Assembly (NCBI GenBank): GCA_964355515.1
Contig: CAYHDV010000002.1
Location: 6,622-70,621 of the forward strand
Length of the DNA: 64,000 bases
Reading direction: 5' to 3'
Source: an uncultured Candidatus Saccharibacteria bacterium
GTDB lineage: Bacteria > Patescibacteriota > Minisyncoccia > Phycocordibacterales > CSBR16-119
Each line of letters begins with the position of its first letter. The stretch's first letter is position 1. Under the pieces are notes generated by a model. That model did no database searches, was not told the DNA's origin, and worked only from the letters and a program-made list of their open reading frames with translations. Of this stretch, positions 1-48,944 are shown in pieces. Position numbers and translations under genes: made by a program.

Positions 1-2753
1 GAAGACACGCGACTTCAGATCTAAACGATTTGTATCGAAGAGTAATCAACCGAAACAACCGACTTAAAAAGCTAAAAGAAATTGGAGCACCTGATGTAAT
101 CCTGCGAAACGAAAAGCGAATCATGCAAGAGGCTGTGGATGCTTTGATTGATAACTCAATCGCAAAACATGGAGACTCTGCGATGAACCAAGCACAACGG
201 CGAGCACTAAAATCTCTTGCTGATAACTTGAAATCAAAACAAGGTCTCTTCCGACAAAACTTGCTTGGTAAACGAGTAGACTATTCAGGGCGATCTGTAA
301 TCGTTGTTGGAGCTACTTTGAAAATGAACCAATGTGGTCTACCAAAGAGAATGGCCATGGAACTTTTCCGACCATTTGTTATTGGAAAAATTCTTGAAGG
401 AGAACTTGCTTTCAACATTCGAGGAGCAAACAAACTTATAGAAGAAGGAGTGCCTGAAGTATGGGCTATTCTAGAAGAAATTATCGAAGGAAAGTTCGTT
501 CTTCTTAACCGAGCACCTACACTTCACCGACTTGGAATCCAAGCTTTTAACCCGATTCTTATTGAAGGAAAAGCTATCCAAGTGCATCCTCTTGTTTGTG
601 CTGCCTTTAACGCTGACTTCGATGGAGACCAGATGGCTGTTCATGTGCCACTTTCAGAACTTGCTCAAGCAGAAGCGAGAGATTTGATGGCCGCAAACAA
701 AAACCTTCTAAAACCTCAAGATGGAAACCCTATCGTGAGCCCCGCTCTTGATATGGTTCTTGGATGTTACTGGATGACAAAATCTATGGATGGTGAAAAG
801 GGAGAGGGAATGTATTTCTCTTCTCCAAACGAAGCCATGTCAGCATATGATTATGGAATTATTGATTTCCGAGCAAAGATAAATGTTAAAGCTACAGATA
901 GTGAAAGATATTCTCAATTTAAGGGTGGAATATTCCAAACATCTGTTGGGCGACTATTTTTCAACTCAGTATTTCCAAAAGATTTTGGTTATGTAAATGA
1001 TGAAATGACAAAGAAGCGTCTTTCAAAACTTGTAGATCAGCTTATTGCTCACTACGGTATTGATGATACTCCAAAGGTTCTTGATGCTATCAAGAAGTTT
1101 GGTTATCAATATTCTACAAAATCAGGAATCACTTGGGGTATCGACAACGTAAACGTTCCAGAAGAAAGAGAAGGTATTATTTTGAAAGGACGAGGAGAAG
1201 AAACAGAAATCAGAAGCCAATTCAACGAAGGTCTTCTTTCAGAAGATGAAAAATATCGAAAGATTATTTCACTATGGGAGAGAATAAAAAATGAAATTCA
1301 AGATGTCATGGTGCCATCTCTTGATCCAAGAGGAGCAACATATGACATGATTACTTCTGGAGCCAGAGGTGCTCTTCACCAGATAACTCAGATGGGAGGT
1401 ATTATCGGAACAATCGTTAACACAAAAGGACAACCTCTTGAATTCCCCGTTGTGCGTTCTTACAAAGATGGGCTTTCACCTATCGATTACTTCATTACTA
1501 CTCACGGATCTAGAAAGGGTCTCGCCGACACCGCTCTTAAAACAGCTCAAGCTGGATATCTGACACGACGTCTTGTTGATGTTGCTCAAGATGTGGTTAT
1601 TAACCATGAGGATTGTGGTACAAAGGAACATGTTGTGGCTGTAGCTGAAAACATTTCAGGACTAGAAATTCCACTATCAAAAAATATTTATGGACGAACA
1701 GCCGCAAAAGATGTGGCAACTCCAGACGGAGAAGTTCTATATAAAAAGGGAACAGTTATTACAAAAGAAATTTCTCAAGACATTGAATCAAAAGGAGTTT
1801 TGGAAGTTTCAATCCATACACCACTTAAATGTGCATTGCTACATGGAGTATGTCAAAAATGCTACGGACTAGACTTGGCTCGAGGTAAGAATACTCAAAT
1901 AGGAGAAGCTATTGGTATTATTGCTGCCCAAGCTATTGGAGAACCTGGAACTCAGCTTACACTTCGAACTTTCCACCAAGGAGGAGTTGCCGGAGGAGCC
2001 GACATCACACAGGGTCTTCCTCGTGTTGAAGAGGTATTTGATAGACGAACTCCAAAGAACCCAGCGGTTGTTGCCCAGACAAAGGGTCACATTGTTGCGA
2101 TAAAAGAAGAAGATGGAAGAAAAGTTATTACTGTTCTTTCTGAAACAAAAGTAAAAGGAACAAACACTATTCTTTATGTCACTCCACCACACCGAATTCC
2201 TGTAGTTACTCCAGGTCAAGAAATTTATCCAGGACAACTTCTTACTGATGGTTCTGCAAACATCCAAGAAATATTCAAATATGGGGGAAGAGAGCTTGCC
2301 GAAAAATATGTTATTGATGAGATCAATAAGGTATATGAGTTGCAAGGAGCACCTATAGCCAAGAAACATCTTGAGGTTATCGTAAAGCAAATGTTCTCTC
2401 GAAGACAAGTTACTGAATCAGGAGACAGCTCACTTTCTGTTGGTGAAAAAGTTGAAGCAATTCATCTTCATGAAGAAAATGAAAAAGTGGCAAAAGAAGG
2501 AGGTAGACCAGCAGAAGCGGATGTTATACTACTTGGAATTACTCAAGTGTCACTTTCAGCGAAGAGTTGGCTATCAGCCGCTTCATTCCAGAACACTTCA
2601 CGAGTTCTTATTGCAAATGCAGTAAAGAGAGGAGTAGATGATCTACGAGGTCTCAAAGAAAATGTTATTATTGGAAGAAGAATCCCAGCAGGAACAGGAC
2701 TCAGAGACCCAGAAGATGTAAAGGATGTAGATCTTGAAGGATATAGAGACTAA
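1..2753 (+). CDS. rpoC: DNA-directed RNA polymerase beta' subunit, C-terminal ~915 aa (5'-partial; continues upstream of window)
   Basis: ORF frame is open to nt 3. In-frame upstream residues [17 protein letters not shown] match the conserved beta' motif, NADFDGDQM catalytic motif is present, and large size with typical beta' C-terminal domains. Confidence 0.95.
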
Positions 2754-2762
2754 CCAAAAAAC

Positions 2763-4445
2763 ATGAGTGATCCCGTAGAACAAATAAAAGAGAGAATATC
2801 TATTGTTGATGTTATATCAACCTACATAACTCTTATACCTGCGGGGAAAAACTACAAAGCAGTTTGTCCTTTTCACAATGAAAAAACACCAAGCTTTCAT
2901 GTCTCTCCAGATAGAGGAAGTTATTACTGTTTTGGTTGTGGGGCAAAAGGAGACATATTTTCCTTCGTTCAAGAATTTGAAGGATTGGATTTTAAGGGGT
3001 CTCTATCTGTACTCGCACAAAAAGCAGGAGTAACTCTCACAAAGTTTGTTGGAGAGAAAAAAGAGAAAAATGACAATCTCTACGAAATTATGGAGAAAGC
3101 AACACTCTTTTTTGAGCAGAAATATAAAGAAAGTGAATTCGCTCAATCGTATGTTAAAAAAAGAGGTTTAGAAGAGGAAACTTCAAAACTATTTCGTTTA
3201 GGTTTTGCGCCAGATGATTGGAGAGGTCTTTTCGACCACTTGTCTTCTCTTGGTTATGATAAAAAAGAAATCATGCTTGTTGGCCTGATAAAAGAAGGAA
3301 ATGGAAGTACCTATGATAGATTCAGAAATCGGATAATGTTTCCTATTTTTGATTCAAGTAGTCGAGTGATAGCTTTTACAGGAAGAGCTATGATATCTGA
3401 TGAAAAAACTGCAAAGTATCTAAACAGCCCAGAAACTCCTCTCTTCCAAAAATCAGATATTCTGTATGGCTTACATCTTGCAAAAAATAGCATTAGAAAA
3501 GTAGATTATACAATTCTTGTTGAAGGACAGCTTGATTTGTTACTCTCTTATCAGTCAGGGTATACAAATACCGTTGCTTCATCAGGGACAGCACTCACAG
3601 AAAATACCTCAAAAGGCGAATCCCTGAATCACTTTGGGATAATCAAGAGATTATCAAACAAAGTTATTATTGCTTTTGATCGCGACCAAGCGGGCTTAAA
3701 AGCAATGTATCGTGCTGTAAAAATATTCTTGTCATTGGGAATGGAAGCTAGGACAGCCGATCTTCCAGAAGGCAAAGACCCAGCAGATGTGATAACTCAA
3801 GATGGTAAGGATGCGTGGAAAACTATTCTAAAAAACTCAGAACATAGTATTATATTCTTAACGAGATATATCGCTCAAAAAGAAAAAGACCCAAGACTCG
3901 TTGCAAAAAAAATTCAGGAAAAGATTCTACCTCTTGTTGCCCTAATAGAAAGCTCAATGGAACAATCTTTTTTTGTCAGAGAAATATCTGGGATTGTAAA
4001 TATTGGAGAGCAAGATATTTTTTCTGACCTGAAGAGGGTTATTGCTGGATTTTCTGTTACAATCCAAAAGGGTGAGGTTCTCACACAGGCTAATATTCGA
4101 AGATTTGACAAAGAATCAGAGATAAGAAGAATGCTTGCAGGAATGTATTCACTTTTGTTGGAGCGAGGGGAAATTATTCCCGAAGAAGATACTTTCGTCA
4201 AAGAGATTGTGGATTCTTTTACTGACAAAGAGAAAACCGGGTTCATGTTTGAAATAGAAGAAATCTACAAAGATGATATAAAGAAACTCCGCGAAGATCT
4301 CAAGCTCTATATTGTAGAATCAAAACAATTCTTACTCAAAAATAGGCTATCAGAATTAGAAATAGAAATAAGAAATGGAGGGGGAGAGGAGGTGCTTAGA
4401 AAATATCAAGATATTTTAAAAACCATTAACAGTAATAATATCTAA
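2763..4445 (+). CDS. dnaG: DNA primase
   Basis: N-terminal CHC2 zinc finger (CPFHNEKTPSFHV…CFGCGAKGD). TOPRIM signatures (LVEGQLD, DRDQAG). Position between rpoC and rpoD. Confidence 0.92.
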   Translation: MSDPVEQIKERISIVDVISTYITLIPAGKNYKAVCPFHNEKTPSFHVSPDRGSYYCFGCGAKGDIFSFVQEFEGLDFKGSLSVLAQKAGVTLTKFVGEKKEKNDNLYEIMEKATLFFEQKYKESEFAQSYVKKRGLEEETSKLFRLGFAPDDWRGLFDHLSSLGYDKKEIMLVGLIKEGNGSTYDRFRNRIMFPIFDSSSRVIAFTGRAMISDEKTAKYLNSPETPLFQKSDILYGLHLAKNSIRKVDYTILVEGQLDLLLSYQSGYTNTVASSGTALTENTSKGESLNHFGIIKRLSNKVIIAFDRDQAGLKAMYRAVKIFLSLGMEARTADLPEGKDPADVITQDGKDAWKTILKNSEHSIIFLTRYIAQKEKDPRLVAKKIQEKILPLVALIESSMEQSFFVREISGIVNIGEQDIFSDLKRVIAGFSVTIQKGEVLTQANIRRFDKESEIRRMLAGMYSLLLERGEIIPEEDTFVKEIVDSFTDKEKTGFMFEIEEIYKDDIKKLREDLKLYIVESKQFLLKNRLSELEIEIRNGGGEEVLRKYQDILKTINSNNI

Positions 4446-7847: not shown

Positions 7848-8888
7848 CTAAATCTCTAGTAGGTAGTAGTTTTCTTGGTCATATACATAGAGTGTATCTT
7901 TGTCATCTATCACGAAAGAGATATTCTGACCTTGAAACAAGGGGAAAATGTTTCTCTTACCTCTCCCATCAAGCTCTACCACGAATAGCCCATCTTCTTT
8001 TGTGATGATAAGCACATCACTTCTTTCGGGGAAGAAATCAAAATGTGAATAAGCTGAAATCTCAGTTATCTCTTTTGGTATTTGACATGTTGGGGCATCA
8101 TCACAGTAAAAAGCTGTGTTGCTTGAATTTTTTTCTAACGCAGATAGGATTGTTTTACCATTGTTTGTTTGCCACACTTCTATTTTCTGTTGCTTTTTTA
8201 TATGCAGCCTAGGCTCTCCAATTGCAAGGATATCCTCTGTCGTTACAATAGCTTCTCCCGTTGTCGTTGCGGTGTTTTGTTCATGAGTTTCCTCTAGCAG
8301 GTCTTCGTATTTTGCAAATGAAATCCTATAGTCTTTGTACTCCTTAGCCCAGTCTTTTTCTGATTCTTCAAAAAGTGCCACCACTTTTTCGTAAAGAGGG
8401 TTTTTTACTTTTGATTCTTCTACTCCACTATTATTTAGAAGATTTGAGGCTGAAGAAAGTTCATCCACTGCCTGATCAATATCAGTTTCTGTTGTGAGGT
8501 ACTTTGGGACTAGAGTCTTTTCTGGGTTTATTGCTACTAGAAATGGAGATACTTCGGTTGTTTTTTGGCTTTCAATTAAAATAGTTTTTTCCCAAGAGTG
8601 GTAGTCTACCAACTCTGTTCGAATAGTGTATTCTCTGGGTTTTAGACTCTGGACGAAGTAGTACCTCTGAAGAAAGCTTGTTAGCTTGCTATCAAGAGGC
8701 TTCTCATCCAAAAGAATTACAACTTCAGTTGTTGGTCTATGAATGTACAGCCCGCCTGTTTTGATAAGTGAGCTATTAGAAAAACGAAATCCTAATGCAT
8801 AGAGAATCAAAAAGGGAAGTATTGATGCAAAGATTGCAACAAAGAAGATAAGTAGTCTATTTCTTTTTTTCTGTGAGAGTGGTTCCAT
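7848..8888 (-). CDS. Membrane-anchored hypothetical protein (N-terminal TM, large extracytoplasmic domain)
   Basis: ORF with one N-terminal hydrophobic helix, sandwiched between two GT2 genes on the same strand. Confidence 0.55.
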   Translation of the reverse strand: MEPLSQKKRNRLLIFFVAIFASILPFLILYALGFRFSNSSLIKTGGLYIHRPTTEVVILLDEKPLDSKLTSFLQRYYFVQSLKPREYTIRTELVDYHSWEKTILIESQKTTEVSPFLVAINPEKTLVPKYLTTETDIDQAVDELSSASNLLNNSGVEESKVKNPLYEKVVALFEESEKDWAKEYKDYRISFAKYEDLLEETHEQNTATTTGEAIVTTEDILAIGEPRLHIKKQQKIEVWQTNNGKTILSALEKNSSNTAFYCDDAPTCQIPKEITEISAYSHFDFFPERSDVLIITKEDGLFVVELDGRGKRNIFPLFQGQNISFVIDDKDTLYVYDQENYYLLEI

Positions 8889-8893
8889 AATAA

Positions 8894-10438
8894 TTATTTT
8901 CTATGTTTTGGTGTTACCCAGAATCCCATATATTTTCCAAACATAAGTCGTGTCTGAGCTTCTATCCCAGGAATTGCACCGAATACAATTATTGTAACAG
9001 GTACGAGAAGCCATTGTAGGAACATATAACCCTTTCTTCTCCATGAATTATATCCTTCTGGTGGTTTCGGTAGGTATCGAAAGGCAACAAGGGCTGAGAT
9101 GAGGATACCTATCATGGATATTGTCATTAGGTATTGAGTCAGGGTTGGTAAATTGTAGGATAGAATTGTCTTGTTGAAATGAGACCCTCCAAGCATAAGA
9201 GGTAGCCATCCAAGTAACAAAATAAAAATTGGATTTGTAGCCAGAGACCAGTATCCATCTATCTGCACTCGTAGTACATCAAACTTTTTTGAAAAAGGAA
9301 TATTTTTATTTTTTATGAAGTTGAAAATAATATAAGGTATATTTTCAGCACCCCACATCCATCTTCGGTGTTGTTTGTAAATATTTTTTATTGTTTGCAA
9401 AAATGTCGGTGCGAGGTTCGCATCCATAGAAACCGGATATGATATAGGTGTTACTGTATAGTTACCATCGTTTGCCATAAATGCATTCCAGAATATTCTA
9501 GAATCTTCTGAAACCATGTTTCTCTGCCAGTAGTTTATTTCATAAAGCGTCTGGAAAGATACTGAGTGTGAAGAAAATGTTACCAGTTTTTCTGGTCGTT
9601 CTTGTTGAATCATTTGCCAAAGTGATCCTGAAGTAGCGGCTACTCGAGAAAAAGCTGGGGCATGCCAGATATTGTTATTGTAGAAAGGAACTGGCTGGAA
9701 AGAAGTTTTGTAAGGGTCTGGAGAGTCCAAGAAGTACCATGTGAGACATGAGAAATATTTGGGAAATATGACAGTGTCGGTATCAAAGTTTGAAACAATT
9801 ACATCTCTATATGGAATATTGTTTGCATCGAGCACCTCTGTCCTTGCTTTATCTATTGCCCAAGAAGTATTGGCTCCTTTTCCAGCATGCTCACCCTCGA
9901 TTCCTGCGGGATGAATTGTCGTAATAAAAAATCCGAAAAGATGAGAATACTTTTTTTGGATATATGCTTGGATTTCTTTTGCATGCTCTTCCTTTGCTCC
10001 TTCACCAGCAAGCACCACAATAATCCTCTTTTTATCATAACTAGCGTCAATAAGTGACTTGAGAGTGCCCTCTACAACTTCCAACGATTCATTATAAAAT
10101 GGAAGAAGAACCATATGCCACAGGTGTTCATATTTGAAATTTTGGAGTTTCTTGTTCCAGTCAAGTTCCATGTTGTACTGCATGCGCTTGTGGTTGTGTA
10201 TTAGATGGATTGATAGGTAGAGAGTTTTTAGTAGCCAAAAAAGGTCAAATGTAATAATAAAAATAGCAGCCCATACGGGTACAAAAATAGATGCAATAAT
10301 TGTACCTAAGATAGTTCCCCAAGTAAGGATACCAGGAAGAGTCTCGAGCAATCGGTATAATACTCGGTCTTTACCTGTTAGATCACTTGCTCGTCCAACA
10401 TGGAACCAAGGATTTTTTGTGTATGGGAGTTGATTCAT
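8894..10438 (-). CDS. Processive membrane GT2 beta-glycosyltransferase (cellulose/chitin/PNAG-synthase-like)
   Basis: QHRRWMWG (QxxRW processivity motif), DTDT and ED motifs, and multiple TM helices at both ends. Confidence 0.75.
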   Translation of the reverse strand: MNQLPYTKNPWFHVGRASDLTGKDRVLYRLLETLPGILTWGTILGTIIASIFVPVWAAIFIITFDLFWLLKTLYLSIHLIHNHKRMQYNMELDWNKKLQNFKYEHLWHMVLLPFYNESLEVVEGTLKSLIDASYDKKRIIVVLAGEGAKEEHAKEIQAYIQKKYSHLFGFFITTIHPAGIEGEHAGKGANTSWAIDKARTEVLDANNIPYRDVIVSNFDTDTVIFPKYFSCLTWYFLDSPDPYKTSFQPVPFYNNNIWHAPAFSRVAATSGSLWQMIQQERPEKLVTFSSHSVSFQTLYEINYWQRNMVSEDSRIFWNAFMANDGNYTVTPISYPVSMDANLAPTFLQTIKNIYKQHRRWMWGAENIPYIIFNFIKNKNIPFSKKFDVLRVQIDGYWSLATNPIFILLLGWLPLMLGGSHFNKTILSYNLPTLTQYLMTISMIGILISALVAFRYLPKPPEGYNSWRRKGYMFLQWLLVPVTIIVFGAIPGIEAQTRLMFGKYMGFWVTPKHRK

Positions 10439-38114: not shown

Positions 38115-38302
38115 CTTTCTTTTAATTTTGATTTTAAAAAAACATTACAGTAATTATTAGAAATGTCAAGAGGGATTTATAATTCTTATCCTTAGGGGCG
38201 AGCACTTTGCTTAAGGATAATTAGTCTTTGTATTTAGACCTATTGTTGCCACCACTTAACTGAAGGTTCTAGTCTCCTTAGAGATTCTGGTATAATAATT
38301 AT

Positions 38303-40403: not shown

Positions 40404-40808
40404 CTAATTTTCAGGACCTTCTATTCTAAAAGTAGCCTTGATACCTCTGTCACTGAAGAAATCTTCAGATGCTTTTTTGAGTTGTTCTTGTCCTCCCTTT
40501 AACCCTTTAAGTGAGGCAGCGAGTAATGAACCGGGTGTGATTAAATCAAGTTGCTCTATTGAGACCTTACCATCGACACCTTCAACACCACACTCAAATC
40601 CATAAAGCTTTGTCCAATCTTCTCCTTTTGTTTGAGCTTCTGGGCTGTTGAGGTCTATGGGCTCAGGGTCTGAAGTTATTGTCGTTTTGGTTGGGTTCTG
40701 TCTTAACTTGTCCCAGTAGATAACATCTACCCCTTTTTTAAATTGATTGATTGTCATGCGTGTACGTTTAATTTGTTCAGATATTACATTATTTACACAA
40801 AATGTCAA
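40404..40808 (-). CDS. Hypothetical protein (island gene 1); true start possibly at internal Met (MTINQF)
   Basis: First 17 codons lie within a ~60-nt block that is also found as 5'-UTR at 41799..41835. Confidence 0.45.
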   Translation of the reverse strand: MTFCVNNVISEQIKRTRMTINQFKKGVDVIYWDKLRQNPTKTTITSDPEPIDLNSPEAQTKGEDWTKLYGFECGVEGVDGKVSIEQLDLITPGSLLAASLKGLKGGQEQLKKASEDFFSDRGIKATFRIEGPEN

Positions 40809-40835
40809 AATGGAAGTGGAAGCCTTACTCTGGGC

Positions 40836-40876
40836 TTATTTAGCAAGTATTTAGCAAGGACAGTCCTAGCTAGTTA
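40836..40876. repeat. Palindromic island repeat (family 3, long form)
   Basis: tatttagcaagtatttagcaaggacagtcctagctagtta matches 42484..42523. Confidence 0.8.
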
Positions 40877-40953
40877 GAGGCTCCGAACTTGGGATGAAGT
40901 TCGAATAGAAATAATAAAAGGCTGAATGCATTTGCAGACAGCCTTTATTGAAG

Positions 40954-41160
40954 TTAGTCGTCATTTAAATACCTTTTGTTTCTCTGTTCTTGGGCAGAAT
41001 CAAACATTTTTTTACGATTATTACTGATATCAGTTCCCGTAATCATATCTGAACTTTTACCTGTCCCTAGGCACGAATGGCAATCAGTTGGGCTTGAATG
41101 ACCTCTACTAGTTTTAAAATGAATCTTTCCTGTTCCGTTGCAAGTTGTACATTTTCCCAT
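40954..41160 (-). CDS. Small DnaJ-type CxxCxGxG zinc-finger protein
   Basis: CTTCNGTGK…CHSCLGTGK. Confidence 0.55.
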   Translation of the reverse strand: MGKCTTCNGTGKIHFKTSRGHSSPTDCHSCLGTGKSSDMITGTDISNNRKKMFDSAQEQRNKRYLNDD

Positions 41161-41166
41161 ATATTT

Positions 41167-41769
41167 TTATTTACTTTTCATCACATTTGGGATTTGTGCC
41201 AAGAAATCTGGAACCCAGAAATCATCAAACCAGTACATTGTAGCGAGAACGGCTCTCTTTATTAAATCTCTTGCAGATTCCTCATCTAATACACCTTTAT
41301 GGTCTGCGTCTTCCAATAGTGTTGCCATAAGTTCAATAAAATATTGAATAGTATCTGTAAAGGTGGGTACTATACGTTGGCCCATATTTTTTACAGGTAC
41401 ATAGGTTATCATTTCATCGTCTATTGGGATTTTAAAATCAGAAAGTTGTTCTTTTTTAATGCCGATAGTGTTTGCAAGCGAAAGGATGTTCACAATCATT
41501 TTTAGAGTAGCAGTTTTTTGGATTAAGGGAATGTTTCCCAGTTTTTCATCAGGCTGAGCCATCCACTGTAAATTACGAACGCCTTTCTTTTCAAAAGGAA
41601 CTTCGTCATTAATTTTGTTGGCGGATTTTAAGATATGGAGTAACCCGTGATTTAAAGAGAAGATCTTTTTTCGTTCATCTGTTAGGCTTCCAATAACAGG
41701 GTAATTTTCTTCGTTGAAAATGTACCTTGAGTTTACATACTCAAAAGCATCGGTGAGGTTTTTTATCAT
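41167..41769 (-). CDS. Hypothetical protein (island gene)
   Basis: 200-aa ORF, 7 bp upstream of the zinc-finger ORF. Confidence 0.45.
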   Translation of the reverse strand: MIKNLTDAFEYVNSRYIFNEENYPVIGSLTDERKKIFSLNHGLLHILKSANKINDEVPFEKKGVRNLQWMAQPDEKLGNIPLIQKTATLKMIVNILSLANTIGIKKEQLSDFKIPIDDEMITYVPVKNMGQRIVPTFTDTIQYFIELMATLLEDADHKGVLDEESARDLIKRAVLATMYWFDDFWVPDFLAQIPNVMKSK

Positions 41770-41978
41770 TGTTTGTACTAATTTAATTTACTCAAATACT
41801 ACATTATTTACACGAAATATCAAAGTATGTTCGAACTTCTAAGTACGGTAATAAAAAATAACCTTACAAAATAAGGCTATTTTTTGAGGCTCCCACTATT
41901 GGATACGTTTAGAACTCTTAATTGGAGTGGTATTAAGAGTGATTTACATTTTAGTGGACTACTAGAACTTAGTAGTAG

Positions 41979-42389
41979 TTATTCAAAGTAATCGCTGTCT
42001 ACTTTTTTGACTTGATATGTGGCAACAATACTAACACCTAAATTAAATTCAATCATTAATTTTGCCAGTTCTTTACCGTTTATAAGTACTATTTCCATAG
42101 ATGACCTATTCCTCTCAATTGTCTCTCTTGCTTGTTTTGTATATTCAGAAGTAGTAATAAAAACACCCTTATTTGCACCTCGACTAGACATTGATCCAAT
42201 AAAATTACGCAACTCAACATCTCCAACACTGTTTTCCCAACGTTTTGCTTGTATATAAATTTTACTCAAACCAAGTCTGTCTTCACTAATAATTCCGTCT
42301 ATTCCACCATCTCCCGATTTACCGATAACAACTCCAGCGTCTTTTAGTGATCCGCCATAACCCATTGAGGTTAATAACTTTACAACCAA
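41979..42389 (-). pseudogene. Mrr-like restriction endonuclease catalytic domain, N-terminally truncated at a palindromic repeat
   Basis: Mrr_cat motifs (GKSGDGGIDGI…IYIQAKRW…VELRNFIGSM). The reading frame extends upstream (…NEILTEELLERVKLISPSDFEYLVV) to a stop that abuts repeat 42457..42483. There is no ATG start and no Mrr_N domain. Confidence 0.65.
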
Positions 42390-42456
42390 ATACTCAAAAT
42401 CACTTGGCGAAATTAATTTAACTCGTTCAAGTAGTTCTTCGGTAAGAATTTCATTT

Positions 42457-42523
42457 AACTAGCGAGGACTGTCCTAGCTAGTTATATTTAGCAAGTATTT
42501 ACCAAGGACAGTCCTAGCTAGTT
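42457..42523. repeat. Two adjacent palindromic island repeats (short form 42457..42483, long form 42484..42523)
   Basis: aactagcgaggactgtcctagctagtt, then tatatttagcaagtatttaccaaggacagtcctagctagtt. Confidence 0.85.
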
Positions 42524-42539
42524 ATGCTTGAGGCATCTC

Positions 42540-43484
42540 CTAGCCACCATAAAAATACTTTTTAAACATCGCATACCCACGTTGAAACCTCTGTTCATCA
42601 TTCCGTTCTACACCCACCCACATACTTCGGAACGCTGGACGAATATATTGTAACTCGATGCGGTTTTGGAGATTCGCGTCGATAGGACCCTCGTATTGAT
42701 CGAGGATTTTATCAAGTACATTTTGTCCGTAATGCAAGAGCCACCTAAATTCATCTGCGGGATCACCGTACTCTCGATCTCCAAAATCAATGATCTTGAC
42801 TTGCTTTTCAGTAGCGTCCCACAATACGTTATCCATCTTCAGATCGCCGTGCTTGAGTACTGATTTGAATTCGTCGTTGAGTGTCGCTCGCAGATTTGCC
42901 AGGTATTGCAAGGTTGTTTCTTGCTCATCCTGGCTTAATCGAGGTAAAGCGAAGGTTTTAACATTTTCTTCAAGTGTACGGAATGTTTGTTCTGGATCGG
43001 ATCGCCTCACATTATATTTCTCAATAATATCGAGAGGTGTGGCATGTAATTGAGACAAAAAAGAAGCTATCTGATGTATTGCAGTATCCTTTTCGTCTTC
43101 GGGTAATTTGTTGAGCATTTCAGCACTCAAAGGGTCACCATGTATATATTCGTAAGACCCAAATGATCCATCATCAGCTACGTATGTATATTCGGGTATT
43201 TGAACTCCGTCAATATGTTGATTCAAGTACGTTAGTAGACGAGCTTCATCAAGTAACGATTCGTGGGGTGCGTTCGCTTTTGGGAGTCGATACACCAACT
43301 TGTTGTCGAGGATAATAATTTCATGGTCTGAGCCACTCACAATATATTCCGCTTTATCGTAACTAATGTTCGGTTCGTGTTGCTTGATTTTTTCTAAGAG
43401 TATTGTTGTTCTCAATGACTCTTCAGTTCTCTTTTTTTCTGATCTGTCCATATACGTTGATAGTATAGCAAAAAGAAAAGCCAA
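42540..43484 (-). CDS. Aminoglycoside/small-molecule phosphotransferase (APH/ChoK kinase-like fold)
   Basis: HGDLKMDNVLWD catalytic loop and IDFGD metal-binding motif. Confidence 0.75.
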   Translation of the reverse strand: MAFLFAILSTYMDRSEKKRTEESLRTTILLEKIKQHEPNISYDKAEYIVSGSDHEIIILDNKLVYRLPKANAPHESLLDEARLLTYLNQHIDGVQIPEYTYVADDGSFGSYEYIHGDPLSAEMLNKLPEDEKDTAIHQIASFLSQLHATPLDIIEKYNVRRSDPEQTFRTLEENVKTFALPRLSQDEQETTLQYLANLRATLNDEFKSVLKHGDLKMDNVLWDATEKQVKIIDFGDREYGDPADEFRWLLHYGQNVLDKILDQYEGPIDANLQNRIELQYIRPAFRSMWVGVERNDEQRFQRGYAMFKKYFYGG

Positions 43485-43666
43485 GCAATTTCTTACTTGA
43501 CTATTCTTTATAAAAGCTCCCCCTAGTGGACGCGTTCAGAACTCTCAACTGGGTTCAAATTAAAAGAGATATTGAGTTTTCTAAGATTTTTGAAAGGTTT
43601 CCAATGATAGTACTTCAGAAATAAACAAAAAGAAAACCCACCGAAGTGGGTCTCACTTGGTGGGCT

Positions 43667-43693
43667 TAACTAGCGAGAACTGTCCTAGCTAGT
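43667..43693. repeat. Palindromic island repeat (short form)
   Basis: aactagcgagaactgtcctagctagtt. Confidence 0.85.
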
Positions 43694-43817
43694 TATTGTT
43701 GCCCCAACTGGCGGAGGATGTTAGGACTTATTTGATTACCTATGGGGGTGGCATACCCCAATACCCCGCCATAAAACCGGAGTCCCAAAAAGTAAGTGTC
43801 TAGACGATTGGGTCCTA

Positions 43818-44822
43818 CTAACTAAATCTGAATTTCCAATAATCGACTTTACTTTTAAAGCTAATAAATAAATTAATCAAACAAACTACTATTCTAGGCA
43901 TTACTCGATCAATTAAAAAATATATTATTACTAACATGCTAGCTAAAAATAGTTGGTTATCGCTATAATTTTTAAAGAAAAAAAGAATTTTTGAATGAGA
44001 AAGTGCCATATAATCAATTATAAAAAATATCACAAGAATAACCGAAATAAATAATAATGCATGGAAAGATATTATATAATCAGAACCAAGTAATTTAAAT
44101 TTTTGATTATCAACAATAGGAATAAGGTCTTTTTCAGTGTACTTATCTTGTCGAAATAAAAGAAAAAAATTATCCCTGTCTATTTCGAGAGTAGAATCTA
44201 CCCACAACTTCCCGCCAATTTTTTTACCAGTTAGAGATAAGATATCCCATAGGCATTTAAGTATCACTATAATTAACTTGATCGTAGTCTCTTTAAAGAA
44301 AATTTTAGTTTTTAAGAAAATAAGACCCCTGAGTTTTGTGGTGTCTATGTGTAAATTATAGATATAATCCACTAGTTCTCTGAGAAAAATATTTTTATTT
44401 GTTTGAGTATCAAAAATCAATTTAGATTTAACATTTAATACAAATCTTTCATCTTCTCTTAAATCTACTGGTTGCCAAGATTTTTCACTTTCTTTAAGTG
44501 ATTCTTCAGTAGGAGATCCAGTATCATCCGGATTGTAGATAATATGATTATCGAGCAAATATTTACTTGCTTTTGAAATAAAAATAAATAAAGGTGCTTT
44601 ATATTCACTATCAATATTTTTATGGTAAAAACCGACCTTAATAAGAACAACACTGTCCGGTTTACCTTCCTTGGTTATTGCAGGTTTAAATTTTGATTTA
44701 TAAGAATAAGCCTTAACAATACTAAATCCAGATACCCCAGGATGTTCATTCCAAGGTATCCTATCTTCATTTTCAACAATTGTAAGTAAGTCGAGAAAAG
44801 ACTTATTATTAGGGATTTCCAT
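43818..44822 (-). CDS. Hypothetical protein with C-terminal TM helices (island gene)
   Basis: 334-aa, very AT-rich ORF. Confidence 0.45.
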   Translation of the reverse strand: MEIPNNKSFLDLLTIVENEDRIPWNEHPGVSGFSIVKAYSYKSKFKPAITKEGKPDSVVLIKVGFYHKNIDSEYKAPLFIFISKASKYLLDNHIIYNPDDTGSPTEESLKESEKSWQPVDLREDERFVLNVKSKLIFDTQTNKNIFLRELVDYIYNLHIDTTKLRGLIFLKTKIFFKETTIKLIIVILKCLWDILSLTGKKIGGKLWVDSTLEIDRDNFFLLFRQDKYTEKDLIPIVDNQKFKLLGSDYIISFHALLFISVILVIFFIIDYMALSHSKILFFFKNYSDNQLFLASMLVIIYFLIDRVMPRIVVCLINLFISFKSKVDYWKFRFS

Positions 44823-44953
44823 AATAAAGCAAATATAACATAAATAACTAGCGAGGACTAACTAGCGAGGACTGTCCTAGCTAGTCCTAATAAAGCAAAT
44901 ATAACATAAATAACTAGCGAGGACTAACTAGCGAGGACTGTCCTAGCTAGTCC
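44823..44953. repeat. Tandem 66-bp duplication (x2), each unit carrying two palindromic-repeat halves
   Basis: taataaagcaaatataacataaataactagcgaggactaactagcgaggactgtcctagctagtcc repeated at 44822..44887 and 44888..44953, abutting the start codon of the 43818..44822 gene. Confidence 0.85.
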
Positions 44954-45213
44954 TGACCTAATGTTTCAGAGCGAACAGCTTTTTCAATTGCAAAAAATTG
45001 TGAGGCCTCTGATGGTTTTCCGATTGACTCAAAAATTATATTTCTTGTTCCGATCTCACGGATGAGAATTTTTACACCTGTTCTTTCCTTGTCGTCAGGT
45101 CTGATATCTTTTGGTAATGCAATAAGATCATCAAAAAGATTTTCTGCAAAATCCAATAGCCATACTTTCGCACCATGTGAGGTGAAAAACTCTTCTCTTT
45201 TCATTTTATTCAA
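44947..45213 (-). CDS. Hypothetical protein
   Basis: 88-aa ORF. Confidence 0.35.
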   Translation of the reverse strand: MNKMKREEFFTSHGAKVWLLDFAENLFDDLIALPKDIRPDDKERTGVKILIREIGTRNIIFESIGKPSEASQFFAIEKAVRSETLGQD

Positions 45214-45488
45214 TTTTAGTTAAACACTTTTTCTGAATGCTAACACAGTATAAAATACTTGTAAAGTTAGTAGAATCTTAGTGCCGCCAACACTTAAGCC
45301 TAAATCTTTTATGGTCACTTTAACTAGGAAGGATTGTTCTTTTAATATACTAACGTTTATTAAAATCACCTTGATTTATAAAACCGCAAGGATTGTTTTT
45401 TCTAATTAAAAATAAGAGTGGCTACTTTTTTAAAATTTGACATATTTATATTTGTAATATACAATAATAAAAAATAGAATATTGAAAT

Positions 45489-46199
45489 ATGGATAAATAT
45501 TGTGAAAATCCGATCGAAAATGAACTCTTTCAAAGAGCCCATCGGTTGATGGAAGAAACAGGGCAGAGTATTCGCAACCATGAGAAAAACTTTTATAGCT
45601 TGGCTGTGCATGAGTTTATAAAAGAAAAATATTCTTATGGCATAGGTCATCTAAAAAGGCAGATTATAATGCCAATGCCTAAAGAAGAATTAGGCAAATG
45701 CCTTAGCAGATGTGAATTAAAAAAGTATTATTCAAGTCTAACTGATCATTCTTGGCCTAAAGATTCTTTTTATCAATACAGCTTTCATGAATGTAATGGT
45801 GAATCGCTAGACTATTTGATGTATGGTTATGCTATATGTGGAGATGAGTTGATTCCTTGCGCATTTTTTATGAATTTCCTTATGACATGGAAAATTCCTG
45901 AAATTCCTAATCAACTTTTCCCTGATGAATATGCCATTGATTATATGGGCTTGAATTCTGGGAAAAATCCTGAGTGTTATATAGGAGTCAGCGTTCCTAA
46001 AGAACAGACAGAAGAATGGCTGATCTCAGCAAGTAAAACTGCTTTCCCATTGGAATATCTGGTTCAAAAACAAAATGAAGAATCAAAAGAAAATTCCGAA
46101 TGGGAGAGAGAAATATTGATGGGTCCACAAGAAATGATTGGATGTCTTTCCGGGGATAATAAAGATTTGGCGATAAAATGGCTCATGAAAAATCAATAA
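45489..46199 (+). CDS. Hypothetical Cys-containing protein (island gene)
   Basis: 236-aa ORF. A sigma70-like promoter (ttgaca-17-tatacaat) lies at ~45437..45472. Confidence 0.45.
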   Translation: MDKYCENPIENELFQRAHRLMEETGQSIRNHEKNFYSLAVHEFIKEKYSYGIGHLKRQIIMPMPKEELGKCLSRCELKKYYSSLTDHSWPKDSFYQYSFHECNGESLDYLMYGYAICGDELIPCAFFMNFLMTWKIPEIPNQLFPDEYAIDYMGLNSGKNPECYIGVSVPKEQTEEWLISASKTAFPLEYLVQKQNEESKENSEWEREILMGPQEMIGCLSGDNKDLAIKWLMKNQ

Positions 46200-46209
46200 T
46201 TAATAAGCT

Positions 46210-46539
46210 ATGGGAAATATAAATAAAAAATTGAAAGCAATTTATTTTCATTGGGTTATAAATTATGCTGGGCCTCCACCCAGATCCCTTTCTTCTACTT
46301 TTGAGGATTACCTCTACTTAGAGAGGTATACTTTTCTTGGAGATGATCGATGGCTTGAAAAAGTTCTCGCTGAATGTAATTTGGTTGATAAGGTTGAATT
46401 TGATGAGCAAATGGTTTTAATCGAAGAACAATTCAATACTTATTCGGACCAGCAACAGAAGAAGCGTGATAAAAGGATGGCTAAAGCATGGAAAACCCAT
46501 TTGTCTAATTGTGATAAAGAGGGGATTCTTCCTTTTTAA
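46210..46539 (+). CDS. Hypothetical protein
   Basis: 109-aa ORF, 10 bp after the previous gene, with a terminator-like hairpin at 46566..46598. Confidence 0.4.
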   Translation: MGNINKKLKAIYFHWVINYAGPPPRSLSSTFEDYLYLERYTFLGDDRWLEKVLAECNLVDKVEFDEQMVLIEEQFNTYSDQQQKKRDKRMAKAWKTHLSNCDKEGILPF

Positions 46540-46721
46540 CACTTTGTTCTTTTTAATTAGATTATCAAAAAATCCCCAAACATTTTGGGGATTTTTTTTA
46601 TAAATTAAAAGAAACACTGAGCTCTCTAAGATTTTTGAGATGTTTCAGATGGTGACACCTCAGAACTAATAAAAAATCTCCCGACCACTGTGTGTGAGGG
46701 AGATTTTCTAGGAAATACTTT

Positions 46722-46970
46722 TTAAGTATTCTCTAGTGTTAATTCGAAAGAACATCTTTTTGTACCAATACTCGTGCGAGTCTTTAATTTCTCTGTCGCA
46801 ACTTCTATTGCCTCTCTTAGGGAGCCTACTTTTATTTCATCCTCCCAAGATGTATCGACTGAATTATTTGGCACAATTGATGAAGACACTTCAATTTTAA
46901 GTCTATACTTTTCCATTTTATTGAGATTTAATTGGTTATCACAAAAGACAAAATCTTCTCTGAAAACCAA
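46722..46970 (-). CDS. Hypothetical protein
   Basis: 82-aa ORF. Confidence 0.3.
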   Translation of the reverse strand: MVFREDFVFCDNQLNLNKMEKYRLKIEVSSSIVPNNSVDTSWEDEIKVGSLREAIEVATEKLKTRTSIGTKRCSFELTLENT

Positions 46971-47038
46971 TCAAATATAATGTGAGAGAACGACATTGTT
47001 TATATAATATCATACTATATTTATTTGTCAAAAATTGT

Positions 47039-47153
47039 TCCGGGAGCAGGGGGATCGCCCTCGACTAAAATTTTTGAAAAAATTTTGTCTGGGCACCAGC
47101 TCGCCTATTTTTCTTATTAGAAAAATATGGCTCCGCTGTTCGATCCCTGCCCG
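47039..47153. repeat. Fragments resembling the tRNA-Asn 3' end (direct at 47039..47066, inverted at 47129..47153)
   Basis: tccgggagcagggggatcgccctcga and ggctccgctgttcgatccctgcccg, compared with the gene's ggtcgcaggttcgatccctgctcccgga. Confidence 0.6.
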
Positions 47154-47270
47154 AAAGCCAAGCAGTTGGCTTTCTTCCCGTCGCTCAAAAAATCAAAAGC
47201 CGCCTTTTCAGGCGACTTAAGATTTTTACGAGCTCCGGGAGCAGGGATCGAACCTGCGACCAATCGATTA

Positions 47271-47850
47271 CACATTTTCCTAATGTTTCCAAAAGGGGTG
47301 GACTATATCATATCCAGTCATCATTTCTGATGCGATGGACCGAGGCGCTTCGACCACGCTTTTCGTGGGCTACTCCCTTGTGGGATAGTCTCTGAACCTT
47401 CAATTGGATTTCTCCAAAAGCTTGGCTGCTGATTACCCACAGCATTACCTGTTTGGGCTTCCAGACAATTCACCTCGTTTTCAACCTACATTTCTATAGG
47501 AAGCTGCGTTACACCGTCGTGCACTTCAGCATGACAATTTGCACAAAGTAAGACACATTTGTCTAGTTCTTTTTGTACTTTTATCCATGCTCTTGTAACA
47601 CCTCTTGCAGAAATTCCAAAAGATTTTTTGGAAGGATCGATATGATGGAAGTTTAATGCCCTTGATGATTTTTTATAACCACAAATGACACATACACCTC
47701 CTTTATATTCGATCGATTTCGTCATGAGAAGTTTCCTTCTTTTGACAACTGCTTTTTTAAGGTATTCTGCACGATCAGCATATGTTCTTTTTTCTTTGCT
47801 TGGCATATACACTGTATTCTACCATGCTTAGAAAAAGGGAACGTGAGTTC
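47271..47850 (-). ncRNA. Group I self-splicing intron (580 nt) with embedded HNH ORF
   Basis: Conserved core elements on the minus strand: GGTTCAGAGACTA (P7 5' strand/R element) and GATATGATATAGTCCACC (S element/P7 3' strand). The intron ends in G before the 3' exon and the 5' exon ends in U. Confidence 0.75.
47486..47812 (-). CDS. Intron-encoded HNH homing endonuclease
   Basis: CVICG…NFHHIDPSKK…LLCANCHAEVHDG, an HNH zinc-finger nuclease motif. Lies entirely inside the group I intron. Confidence 0.8.
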   Translation of the reverse strand: MYMPSKEKRTYADRAEYLKKAVVKRRKLLMTKSIEYKGGVCVICGYKKSSRALNFHHIDPSKKSFGISARGVTRAWIKVQKELDKCVLLCANCHAEVHDGVTQLPIEM

Positions 47851-47946
47851 ACAGTCGATTGCTCTACCGCTGAGCTATCCCGGAATACTGGCATATCTAA
47901 TTAAAGATACTAAAATATTCTATCAAAAAAGTGGTAAAATGCAACC

Positions 47947-48653: not shown

Positions 48654-48944
48654 ATGAAAGATGATTATGTAACAAAAAAAGATCTTCAAGATTTTGGTGA
48701 GAAGCTTGAGCAAAGAATTGAGCAAAGAATTGATCAAAAGATCGAAGAAAAGCTTGAACCTATTCGATATGATTTAAACAAGCTGGGAGTCACTCAAGAA
48801 CAAATGATGCATAGCATACAAGCAATAATTGAAATGCTTGCTCCAAATCTAGAAAGAACAACTGATCATGGATACAGAATCGTCGCAAACGAAGAAAAAA
48901 TTAAAGAGCATGATATTCAAATAGGGGTGTTGCAAAAGAAGTAG
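48654..48944 (+). CDS. Hypothetical coiled-coil protein
   Basis: 96-aa ORF. Confidence 0.35.
   Translation: MKDDYVTKKDLQDFGEKLEQRIEQRIDQKIEEKLEPIRYDLNKLGVTQEQMMHSIQAIIEMLAPNLERTTDHGYRIVANEEKIKEHDIQIGVLQKK

Follow-up and report, generated by a model that had tools for sequence, protein, structure and literature searches.

Immediately downstream of the tRNA-Asn(GUU) gene in a 64-kb stretch of DNA from an uncultured Candidatus Saccharibacteria bacterium (contig CAYHDV010000002.1; this whole stretch is called the window below), positions 41889-47231 (5.3 kb) are best read, with a probability of about 0.75, as a tandem stack of decayed integrative elements of large serine recombinases (LSRs) at the 3' end of the tRNA gene. 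A palindromic repeat resembling repetitive extragenic palindromes (REPs) would form a separate layer in the same DNA. The locus in this window is a dead remnant and not an active element, and the integrase at this island was a serine recombinase, not of the tyrosine type usually assumed for tRNA islands. A sequence-only reading had proposed a decayed integrative or defence island inserted at tRNA-Asn, extending over 40404-47270 and composed of cassette-like gene units. The tRNA-linked decayed island with its remnant of an Mrr-type nuclease stands, and the cassette boundaries and the role given to scraps of tRNA sequence as the main attachment (att) remnants are not supported.

Displaced recombinase tails and attachment sites

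The plus-strand stretches 41887-41988 and 43514-43621 are homologous to each other and a partial third copy can be found at 46602-46672, forming a repeat of about 100 nt that had gone unflagged in the sequence-only reading. Tail 1 (41889-41991, plus strand), presumably the oldest, starts at a GCTCC pentamer, reads (R)LPLLDTFRTLNWSGIKSDLHFSG... to its stop codon and was recognized by tblastn and nhmmer (E = 7.9e-15). Tail 2 (43516-43624, plus strand) is complete, also starts at GCTCC and reads (K)LPLVDAFRTLNWVQIKRDIEFSKIFERFPMIVLQK followed by a stop (nhmmer, E = 5.6e-20); both nhmmer values come from a model of 14 sequences in all that includes these two copies. The amino acid sequence of tail 2 is 86% identical to the C-terminus of the LSR fragment P0002, and its DNA is 77% identical to a copy in the relative L003, though the Fmt proteins of the two are only 49% identical (loci compared are given L numbers and proteins P numbers). 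Tail 3 (46602-46672, plus strand; IKRNTELSKIFEMFQMVTPQN followed by two stops) is partial, its 5' half including GCTCC being missing, and was identified by 77% identity to tail 2, by tblastn (5.6e-4) and by its match to P0002. A wider tail profile revealed no further tail in the window, the GAGGCTCC motif at 40877 included. L003 and L022 (two copies each) and L001 also carry this element downstream of tRNA-Asn, in the relative orientation that it has in the window, and the tail pattern gave 0 matches in viral contigs.

Since the copies differ mostly by synonymous substitutions (CTA/TTG, CTC/CTT/CTG, GAC/GAT), they have evolved as coding DNA, with the consensus (M/K/R)LPL(L/V)DxFRTLNWxxIKxD.... 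Two other identities were considered for the element. A relationship with a tRNA or with the core of a group I intron (weak tblastn matches at 47375-47422, E = 0.25-0.6) is ruled out by the coding type of the substitutions and by the homology with LSRs. A small free-standing gene could be imagined from the ATG-started ORFs (open reading frames) of 35-37 aa in L003 and L022. This was rejected, as neither window copy begins with ATG, tail 2 beginning with AAG after a TAA stop and tail 1 with AGG, and these ORFs directly follow terminators with no space for a promoter or a ribosome-binding site.

Regarding the gene from which the tails derive, the metagenome ORFs P0002, P0003, P0006, P0039 and P0041 fuse the tail to a motif ...EHTKADE...FESSE..EKR...PF...QPIGL. 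The longer module joined to the tail reads ...ITKxDYDKKLKELKxKQY...EHTKADESYYITASTV..LAK.A.EIFESSEV.EKRA.LN.LLQN...GKK..F..RSPF......QPIGL, after which PLVDAFRTLNW... follows. A profile of this C-terminal module matched 5418 proteins among 1.84 billion representatives. Members of about 500 aa are LSRs, in which Resolvase, Recombinase and Zn_ribbon_recom domains are combined with the module, located at the very C-terminal end. The LSR domains were found by Pfam scan in the relatives' proteins P0070, P0104, P0134, P0136, P0149 and P0172, and as precomputed Pfam families in P0223, P0201 and P0193. The best NCBIfam matches of the LSR are CcrB, XisF and CcrA, with 76 bits vs a cut-off of 900 for Ccr, and searches with LSR C-terminal fragments returned nothing from PHROGs or from PDB sequences. 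Among 120 full-length homologues of one LSR, the reading frame continues after 'GL' into the antisense T arm of a tRNA (DSNLRP, DSNPRP and similar) in 45, ends one to three codons after GL(R/P) in 49, and carries the tail in about 20. The C-terminus of P0293 (...GLREQGSNLRPIA) corresponds to the antisense of the window's own tRNA-Asn (47233-47265) in 11 of 11 residues.

Four types of junction can be aligned across the loci, and GCTCC is the core common to all of them. The unoccupied target attB (terminator-GCTCC-tRNA) is found in the window at 47232, in L022 and in L003; attR (LSR-GCTCC-tRNA) in L052, L056 and L054; attL (X-GCTCC-tail) in the window at 41889 and 43516 as well as in L003, L022, L025, L026, L052 and L056; and an attP-like junction (LSR-GCTCC-tail) in L026, L027 and L054. 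The window's own junctions with GCTCC are two of the attL type and the empty attB, with no attR, the other types being known from other loci. This core being shared by all four junction types, the attachment site falls within the final ~35 codons of the LSR gene. In the present attB, the core (47232-47236, plus strand) consists of one base past the discriminator, the discriminator and the last three acceptor bases, read in antisense. A conserved block TTNAGAACTYT lies at 20-30 nt from the core and, judging from established structural work on LSRs, would be the expected contact of the zinc ribbon with the P' half-site.

Elements retaining their recombinase gene can be found in some of the loci compared. 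In L052 and L056/L057, an element of 5-9 kb ends in an LSR gene whose last ~40 nt overlap tRNA-Asn in antisense, with tails upstream. In L054, the LSR gene runs into an intron-bearing tRNA-Asn and, upstream, another full LSR ends with a tail. A gene with an HTH_17 domain (Xis-like) belongs to the LSR-encoding gene row of L052, L054 and L056, and lies directly upstream of the LSR gene in L052 only; the general Pfam scan found no HTH_17 among the ORFs of the window's island, no search for a functional counterpart having been made. L026 offers two separate observations, namely an IS30-type transposase gene (HTH_38, 1696-3101) inside its LSR gene, leaving the last 118 codons and the tail, and a second attL on the same contig whose B arm is that of the empty tRNA-Asn site of L003.

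Positions 41835-41891 can be aligned to the sequence flanking the empty tRNA-Asn site in L022 (common GGTAA.AAAAAATA.CCTTA...AAGGCTATTTTT), and 41851-41888 is identified by this alignment as the ancestral tRNA-Asn terminator, the B arm left by the first insertion. As the flank to the left of tail 1 matches the terminator flank of L022, 41889-47231 was inserted between the ancestral terminator and the tRNA. Three units can be delimited within it. Unit 1 (41889-43515) comprises tail 1, a truncated Mrr nuclease gene, two palindromes and an APH kinase gene; unit 2 (43516-46601) comprises tail 2, a palindrome, a 334-aa ORF, duplicated palindromes and ORFs of 88, 236 and 109 aa; and unit 3 (46602-47231) comprises the partial tail 3, an 82-aa ORF, the tRNA-like scraps and the present terminator. 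A terminator hairpin recovered by the terminator scan at 43479-43502 (minus strand), 13 nt from the core of tail 2, would be the former B arm of the attB of unit 2. The intrinsic terminator hairpin of tRNA-Asn itself (47197-47218, minus strand; terminator scan and sequence) is part of the present B arm.

It can be proposed from these junctions that LSRs of a family widespread in Patescibacteria inserted elements serially at GCTCC, at the 3' end of tRNA-Asn. Each integration would leave the recombinase ORF ending in antisense tRNA (attR) and would shift the natural 3' tail of the recombinase gene to the far end of the element (attL). The recombinase genes would all have been lost afterwards, leaving the cargo in place (truncated Mrr, APH-like kinase and hypothetical genes). 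In this scheme we infer the order in which the units were inserted, the route by which the recombinases were lost and any activity of the LSR or of the Y1 transposase considered below. What was shown directly is what the tails are, the core common to the junctions, where the gene order breaks, the link between palindrome and transposase, and that the window contains neither enzyme. No LSR body was found in the 64 kb by tblastn with 16 LSR sequences (full-length proteins and C-terminal fragments), and the Pfam scan of the island ORFs revealed no integrase.

The gene order on the tRNA side is conserved in relatives. To the right of the island are the genes for PDF, Fmt, HPF and a DUF167 protein. 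When Fmt was used in a protein scan with one genome per species, the close matches were all Patescibacteria-type metagenome-assembled genomes (MAGs), the best being L022 (72% identity) and L001 (67%), in line with a window from a Patescibacteria (Paceibacteria-like) genome; an exact-match look-up of the Fmt protein gave no record. The order PDF-Fmt-HPF-DUF167-tRNA-Asn, with an intron-less tRNA, is kept in L022, L001, L002 and L003, and the window genes at 47.9-58.8 kb are collinear with L022. Nothing in the window to the left of 47233 matches the L022, L001, L002 or L003 loci and, given the conserved order on the other side, the break therefore falls exactly at the tRNA 3' end. The comparison of synteny called for in the sequence-only reading thus came out in its favor, the four relatives keeping the tRNA-side order and differing from the tRNA 3' end onward. 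In L022, a CsoR/copper-ATPase cluster follows tRNA-Asn in place of the island, and the island proteins have no homologues in any relative or metagenome locus compared. A fast-evolving, vertically inherited accessory region that only looks foreign, with no insertion at all, would agree with a small GC shift of 3 points, restricted to half of the region, and with a closest relative at only 72% Fmt identity, so that gene order could have decayed otherwise. It is nonetheless highly improbable in view of the break exactly at the tRNA end, of two precise attL-type junctions, the tails of which share 77-86% identity with copies from distant genomes, and of an ancestral terminator now lying 5.3 kb from the tRNA.

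The tRNA-Asn gene occupies 47233-47884 on the minus strand, with exon 1 at 47884-47851, a group I intron at 47850-47271 and exon 2 at 47270-47233, so that the end coordinate 47270 first given for the island is the first base of exon 2. The exons were read from the sequence by hand, the split tRNA being called neither by ARAGORN nor by Rfam at the gathering threshold. The intron measures 580 nt, is located after U35, contains an HNH ORF (47812-47486; Pfam HNH) and is matched by the Rfam group I intron model at 47279-47560 on the minus strand (RF00028, 55.5 bits). A group I intron is found at the same position of tRNA-Asn, after U35, in the distant relative L054 (11511-11766, minus strand), and the intron is lacking in six other relatives.

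Tyrosine integrases usually leave direct repeats of a tRNA 3' end as their scar, and tRNA-like fragments at 47039-47153 had been taken as att remnants in the sequence-only reading. Such fragments do exist. A degenerate direct copy of the tRNA-Asn 3' end (T arm and acceptor) of about 30 nt lies at 47037-47066 on the minus strand (fuzzy match with 7 differences; alignment), and an inverted exact 13-mer of the T arm (GTTCGATCCCTGC) at 47138-47150 on the plus strand (local alignment). With these it could be supposed that the locus is a classical tyrosine-integrase tRNA island whose att repeats are the tRNA copies at 47037-47153, the rest being unrelated variable DNA. This is improbable, as the copies bracket only ~170 bp and not the island, no tyrosine integrase gene or fragment was found in the island ORFs by Pfam scan, and three LSR tails with the GCTCC core explain the 5.3 kb much better. 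The main att remnants are instead the tails at 41889, 43516 and 46602. The direct copy at 47037-47066 is what remains of either an older att junction or a former copy of the tRNA, and the tRNA 3'-end scraps represent at most a small, additional, older event.

The palindromic repeat and an associated transposase

A 27-mer palindrome and its variants can be found at 40837-40876, 42457-42483, 42485-42524, 43668-43694 and twice within 44846-44953, with a degenerate trace at 45319-45340. All eight copies counted are contained in 4.1 kb, the remaining 60 kb being free of them; shuffled sequences contain none, and none is expected by chance. The palindrome, described earlier as present in nearly every intergenic gap, occupies only 4 of ~10 gaps, its absence from the rest of the window being borne out. 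All four sites are located between ORFs, one supplying the stop codon of the 88-aa ORF and one abutting the broken Mrr gene. At this truncation point, two REP-like palindromes are adjacent (42457-42524, made up of 42457-42483 and 42485-42524), the first of which folds at -9.3 kcal/mol (z = -6.2). The copy at 43668-43694 has one mismatch (DNA hairpin z = -2.5). A perfect 66-bp tandem duplication at 44822-44953 (repeat search, 100% identity) contains in each copy the palindrome and an extra left half-site (AACTAGCGAGGACT AACTAGCGAGGACT GTCCTAGCTAGTC), and is either a recent duplication or a collapse or expansion of the assembly. Its first position coincides with the first base of the 334-aa ORF's start codon.

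The palindrome is not specific to this locus, as had been supposed: a metagenome scan with a 21-base pattern recovered 33 contigs, several with copies at gene-length intervals and one, of 154 kb, with 4 exact sites. The conserved core is a perfect 25-bp dyad, ACTAGCTAGGAC-N-GTCCTAGCTAGT, often with extra half-sites adjacent. Viral contigs gave 24 single matches to a 14-base core, which were attributed to chance since none had the full dyad. A 223-aa ORF having HFH and YIHLNP motifs is enclosed by the first two copies in L061. Its homologues (60-73% identity) adjoin the palindrome in at least 12 of the 33 contigs recovered, with a copy visible on each side of the gene in 10 (L059, L061, L062, L063, L071, L075, L078, L081, L084 and L090); 3 further contigs, truncated by a contig end, show a single flank (L060, L065 and L086). 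The 223-aa protein matches Pfam Y1_Tnp with 33 bits, above the cut-off of 23, and the gene is referred to as a Y1/HUH transposase gene. Solo copies of the palindrome outnumber it, and no Y1 transposase of this family is encoded in the 64-kb window.

Two of these contigs deserve separate mention. In L061 (1127-3525), palindromes separate the Y1 transposase gene from two Fic/DOC-family genes, and accessory genes punctuated by the palindrome are thus a pattern that recurs outside the window. In L062 (3-1259), the palindrome-flanked Y1 gene stands beside an Fmt homologue 48% identical to the Fmt of the window.

No LSR tail was found in the palindrome-bearing contigs and no palindrome in the LSR loci or the relatives' loci; therefore, each of the two repeat systems is independent of the other. 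The palindromes were superimposed on the island afterwards, or arrived with its DNA. The REP-like hairpins, with a cognate Y1/HUH transposase similar to REP-associated tyrosine transposases (RAYTs) that would be encoded outside the window, have probably spread through the non-essential intergenic DNA of the island, one copy marking the break in Mrr.

A different view would make the palindromes cassette recombination sites (attC-like as in integrons, or att sites of the LSR), or operators or terminators. Their place between genes does give a cassette-like look, near-perfect dyads with extra half-sites resemble protein-binding sites, and those of L061 also separate accessory genes (Fic toxins). 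Integron attC sites measure ~55-140 bp, have an R''/L''/L'/R' architecture and an IntI tyrosine recombinase nearby. Unlike integrons and clusters of attC sites lacking an integrase (CALINs), the repeats considered here are of 25-27 bp, far shorter than attC, have no IntI-like ORF in the island and are associated with a Y1 transposase. They show no likeness to the LSR junctions and cross the borders of the LSR-derived units, and the lack of a T-run after them means that they are not intrinsic terminators. With the Y1/HUH gene adjoining them in so many independent contigs, this alternative appears quite unlikely, and the cassette-like units bounded by the palindrome in the sequence-only reading are replaced by a family of repeats that, elsewhere, border a transposase gene as in REP/RAYT systems. 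An operator role would be compatible with a REP origin.

REP/RAYT systems are defined by RAYT genes flanked by inverted REPs, with solo REPs far more numerous (PMC2817692, PMC5581495), and usually more than 100 REPs are present per genome (PMC2817692). A GTAG or CGTC tag is described at one end of REPs (PMC3733652). The repeat studied here shares with them an extragenic position, a DNA hairpin, a Y1/HUH gene flanked on both sides (in metagenome contigs only) and the excess of solo copies, and its doublets and extra half-sites recall bacterial interspersed mosaic elements (BIMEs) and the REP doublets known as REPINs. It differs from them in a score of 36 of the 80 bits of the NCBIfam RAYT equivalog, in the lack of a GTAG or CGTC tag, in copies that are few and clustered in the 64 kb covered, and in its host from the candidate phyla radiation (CPR). 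A family of miniature inverted-repeat transposable elements (MITEs) of the IS200/IS605 type is an equally fair label.

Decay or capture of the stacked units

Several points weigh against a stack of decayed LSR elements with a REP-like layer. Both mechanisms rest on relatives and metagenome contigs, because no LSR or Y1 transposase gene is present in the 64 kb. The border between units 2 and 3 is inexact because tail 3 lacks the core, and the available loci, compared on the right flank, do not set the left border of the variable region. With regard to the palindrome, the best NCBIfam match of the 223-aa protein, REP_Tyr_transpos, stops at 36.4 bits vs a cut-off of 80, so that the RAYT equivalog is not reached, and this RAYT-like protein has no PDB sequence match. 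The palindrome core carries CTAG, without the GTAG or CGTC tag of the classical REP superfamilies, and the copies in these 64 kb are clustered rather than dispersed. Finally, plain integration followed by decay does not explain why a hairpin precedes almost every attL, nor does plain decay explain a traceless loss of LSR genes beside an intact tRNA end.

These hairpins are intrinsic terminators in tRNA-sense orientation, located 9-14 nt from GCTCC before the attL sites of window tails 1 and 2, L003, L022, L052 and L056a-c; the attL of L026 has none. Given such a hairpin before nearly every attL, the right end of each unit looks like a former attB, and each stacked unit appears to have brought a new tRNA terminator. 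It can be hypothesized on this ground that the units are recombinase-less cassettes captured serially at tRNA-Asn by an LSR acting in trans, each capture rebuilding the terminator-GCTCC-tRNA target, as in the ccr-less pseudo-SCC elements (SCC, staphylococcal cassette chromosome) at rlmH. Besides the attL B arms themselves, the absence of any LSR body fragment from the window, similar short units (a tail and one or two genes) in L025, L026, L003 and L056, and CcrB as best NCBIfam match of the LSR speak in its favor. Canonical LSRs, however, recombine attP with attB only, and an attL-like site (B-type arm, core and P' arm) is no known substrate; no circular form and no identical unit at two places were seen; one attL, that of L026, has no hairpin; and truncated LSR fragments joined to tails are common in metagenomes, so that decay of LSR genes does happen. 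The tRNA-Asn locus as an LSR-driven gene-capture platform, in which short units (tail, gene or genes, terminator) are inserted in trans into an integron-like or pseudo-SCC-like stack, is therefore a minority hypothesis, with perhaps a further part for the REP-like hairpins, which might let the Y1 transposase move the genes between them. Serial integration of complete LSR elements followed by loss of their recombinase genes remains the preferred reading.

Composition, cargo and affinities of the island

The overall GC content of the window is 0.376. The island, at 0.348, is compared with 0.379 +/- 0.008 in windows of equal length elsewhere, none of which is so low, and the tetranucleotide deviation across the 64 kb has its maximum at 40-47 kb; the compositional shift reported from the sequence alone is thus confirmed by windowed GC and tetranucleotide analysis. 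The GC dip is carried by 43.7-47.2 kb (0.326), and the claim that the whole ~6.9 kb is AT-rich holds for this part and fails for 40.4-43.7 kb, whose value (0.372) is near average.

As it is located beyond the ancestral tRNA terminator, 40404-41888 lies outside the demonstrable insertion. Like the stack, it is of unusual composition and contains a palindrome (one copy), together with a promoter-like 43-mer in duplicate, and the tail profile gave nothing on this side of 41889. The minus-strand row at 40404-41850, atypical in composition and standing outside the LSR-derived stack, is made up of three hypothetical ORFs (134, 68 and 200 aa), the palindrome copy and the 43-nt repeats. The 43-nt repeat (TTGACA-N16-TAATAT, minus strand) precedes the 134-aa and the 200-aa ORFs at 40767-40809 and 41782-41824, the two copies being 86% identical, and a weaker third copy can be found outside the island at 38128-38170. 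The 68-aa ORF, described earlier as a DnaJ-type zinc-finger mini-protein, indeed has two CxxCxGxG motifs, with a DnaJ_CXXCXGXG score that falls under the Pfam cut-off.

Regarding the cargo of unit 1, the N-terminally truncated Mrr-type (type IV) restriction endonuclease (41979-42455, minus strand; Pfam Mrr_cat 3.5e-32, PADLOC mREase_IV) was correctly recognized from the start. Its Mrr_cat ORF (41979-42389, minus strand) matches positions 180-315 of the 317-position type IV restriction endonuclease model, the N-terminal DNA-recognition part is not encoded, and the frame is open up to the palindrome at 42457; the truncated gene is a probable pseudogene. The APH-like kinase proposed for the neighboring ORF (42540-43484, minus strand) was likewise verified, by Pfam APH (1.1e-23) and weak PADLOC kinase matches. 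The ORF encodes 314 aa when read from TTG, but translation more likely begins at an ATG at 43452.

In unit 2, the 334-aa hypothetical ORF (43818-44822, minus strand; ORF list) has hydrophobic helices near its C-terminus and only sub-threshold Pfam similarity (DUF6831, 17.7 bits vs a cut-off of 25). It is followed by the 88-aa hypothetical ORF (44947-45213, minus strand; ORF list), whose stop codon lies inside a palindrome copy, and by two hypothetical ORFs of 236 and 109 aa (45489-46539, plus strand; ORF list) ahead of a terminator at 46566-46599. The latter two gave no Pfam match above the curated cut-off and no PADLOC match, and NCBIfam, run on the 236-aa protein only, gave nothing. The cargo of unit 3 is the 82-aa hypothetical ORF (46722-46970, minus strand; ORF list), without Pfam or PADLOC match and preceded by a strong sigma-70-like promoter at 47031-47004 (promoter scan 11/12). 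Single-sequence AlphaFold2 (AF2) models of the 334-aa and 200-aa proteins, with pLDDT (predicted local distance difference test) values of 42 and 50, were too poor for fold searches.

PADLOC, applied to all ten island ORFs, gave the Mrr and the weak kinase matches only, and besides Mrr and APH no island ORF had a family match above the curated cut-off. As these scans gave little else, the designation as a defence island draws only on the Mrr remnant and on the restriction-modification cargo of intact relatives. In L054, genes for an N6_N4 methyltransferase and MvaI/BcnI (8374-10004) are directly upstream of the LSR gene, a position held in L056 by Dcm and Vsr (8637-10035).

Within the conserved block on the other side of the tRNA, a 96-aa ORF without family match is present at 48654-48944 (plus strand) between HPF and Fmt. 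In L022, no gene separates Fmt and HPF, whose stops are 14 nt apart, and the ORF is a second small insertion in this block.

Among known systems, SCC and SCCmec of staphylococci are integrated by the LSRs CcrAB or CcrC at the 3' end of rlmH/orfX, where they form tandem stacks in which recombinase-less units persist. The island resembles them by an LSR acting at the 3' end of a conserved gene, by the tandem stack, by units without recombinase and by accessory or defensive cargo. In contrast to SCC, the target is a tRNA gene and not a protein gene; the attachment site lies inside the recombinase 3' end, so that the last ~35 codons are swapped on integration; and the LSR of Patescibacteria is similar to Ccr at the family level only (the 76 bits given above), no recombinase being left in the window. 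The SSV-type (Sulfolobus spindle-shaped virus) integrases of archaeal fuselloviruses are tyrosine recombinases with attP inside int and a tRNA target, the gene being split into two large parts. Common to both are the attachment site within the integrase gene, the tRNA target and an ORF partitioned by integration, whereas in the present family the exchange is limited to the last ~35 codons, and the ORF reads on into antisense tRNA. In the tycheposons and tRNA-linked islands of Prochlorococcus, integration is repeated at one site and older elements are moved inward by newer arrivals, degraded remnants occur throughout the islands together with additional att copies, 910 of 937 elements use tyrosine recombinases, and the scars are partial tRNAs (10.1101/2020.12.28.424599). 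The likeness resides in a tRNA-adjacent island arising from repeated integration at one site, with scattered degenerate remnants and additional att copies, and the difference in the LSR enzyme and in a scar that is the recombinase's own 3' tail.

The kind of island is known; the integrase family and the repeat family were not found described for these tiny uncultured bacteria, the limited collection of literature searched containing no account of REP/RAYT-like repeats in Patescibacteria, nor of the LSR family and its targeting of tRNA genes. The genomes of Patescibacteria, or CPR bacteria, are tiny, and the ways in which genes enter and leave them are poorly understood. The findings add a new host group and a new arrangement, and do not change the view of how such systems work. 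With the palindrome linked to a Y1 transposase, the known range of REP/RAYT-like repeats comes to include CPR genomes. If the locus were indeed a capture platform, it would mean stacked accessory and defence genes in genomes otherwise thought poor in mobile DNA. With regard to the recombinases, a large LSR family (the 5418 profile matches) integrates at the 3' ends of tRNA genes and has its attachment site embedded in the last codons of the recombinase gene itself. Natural attB/attP pairs can be read directly from such junctions, which is of practical interest for the discovery of serine-integrase tools, and the orphan tail provides a searchable scar for mapping integration hot spots and delimiting islands in fragmentary MAGs.

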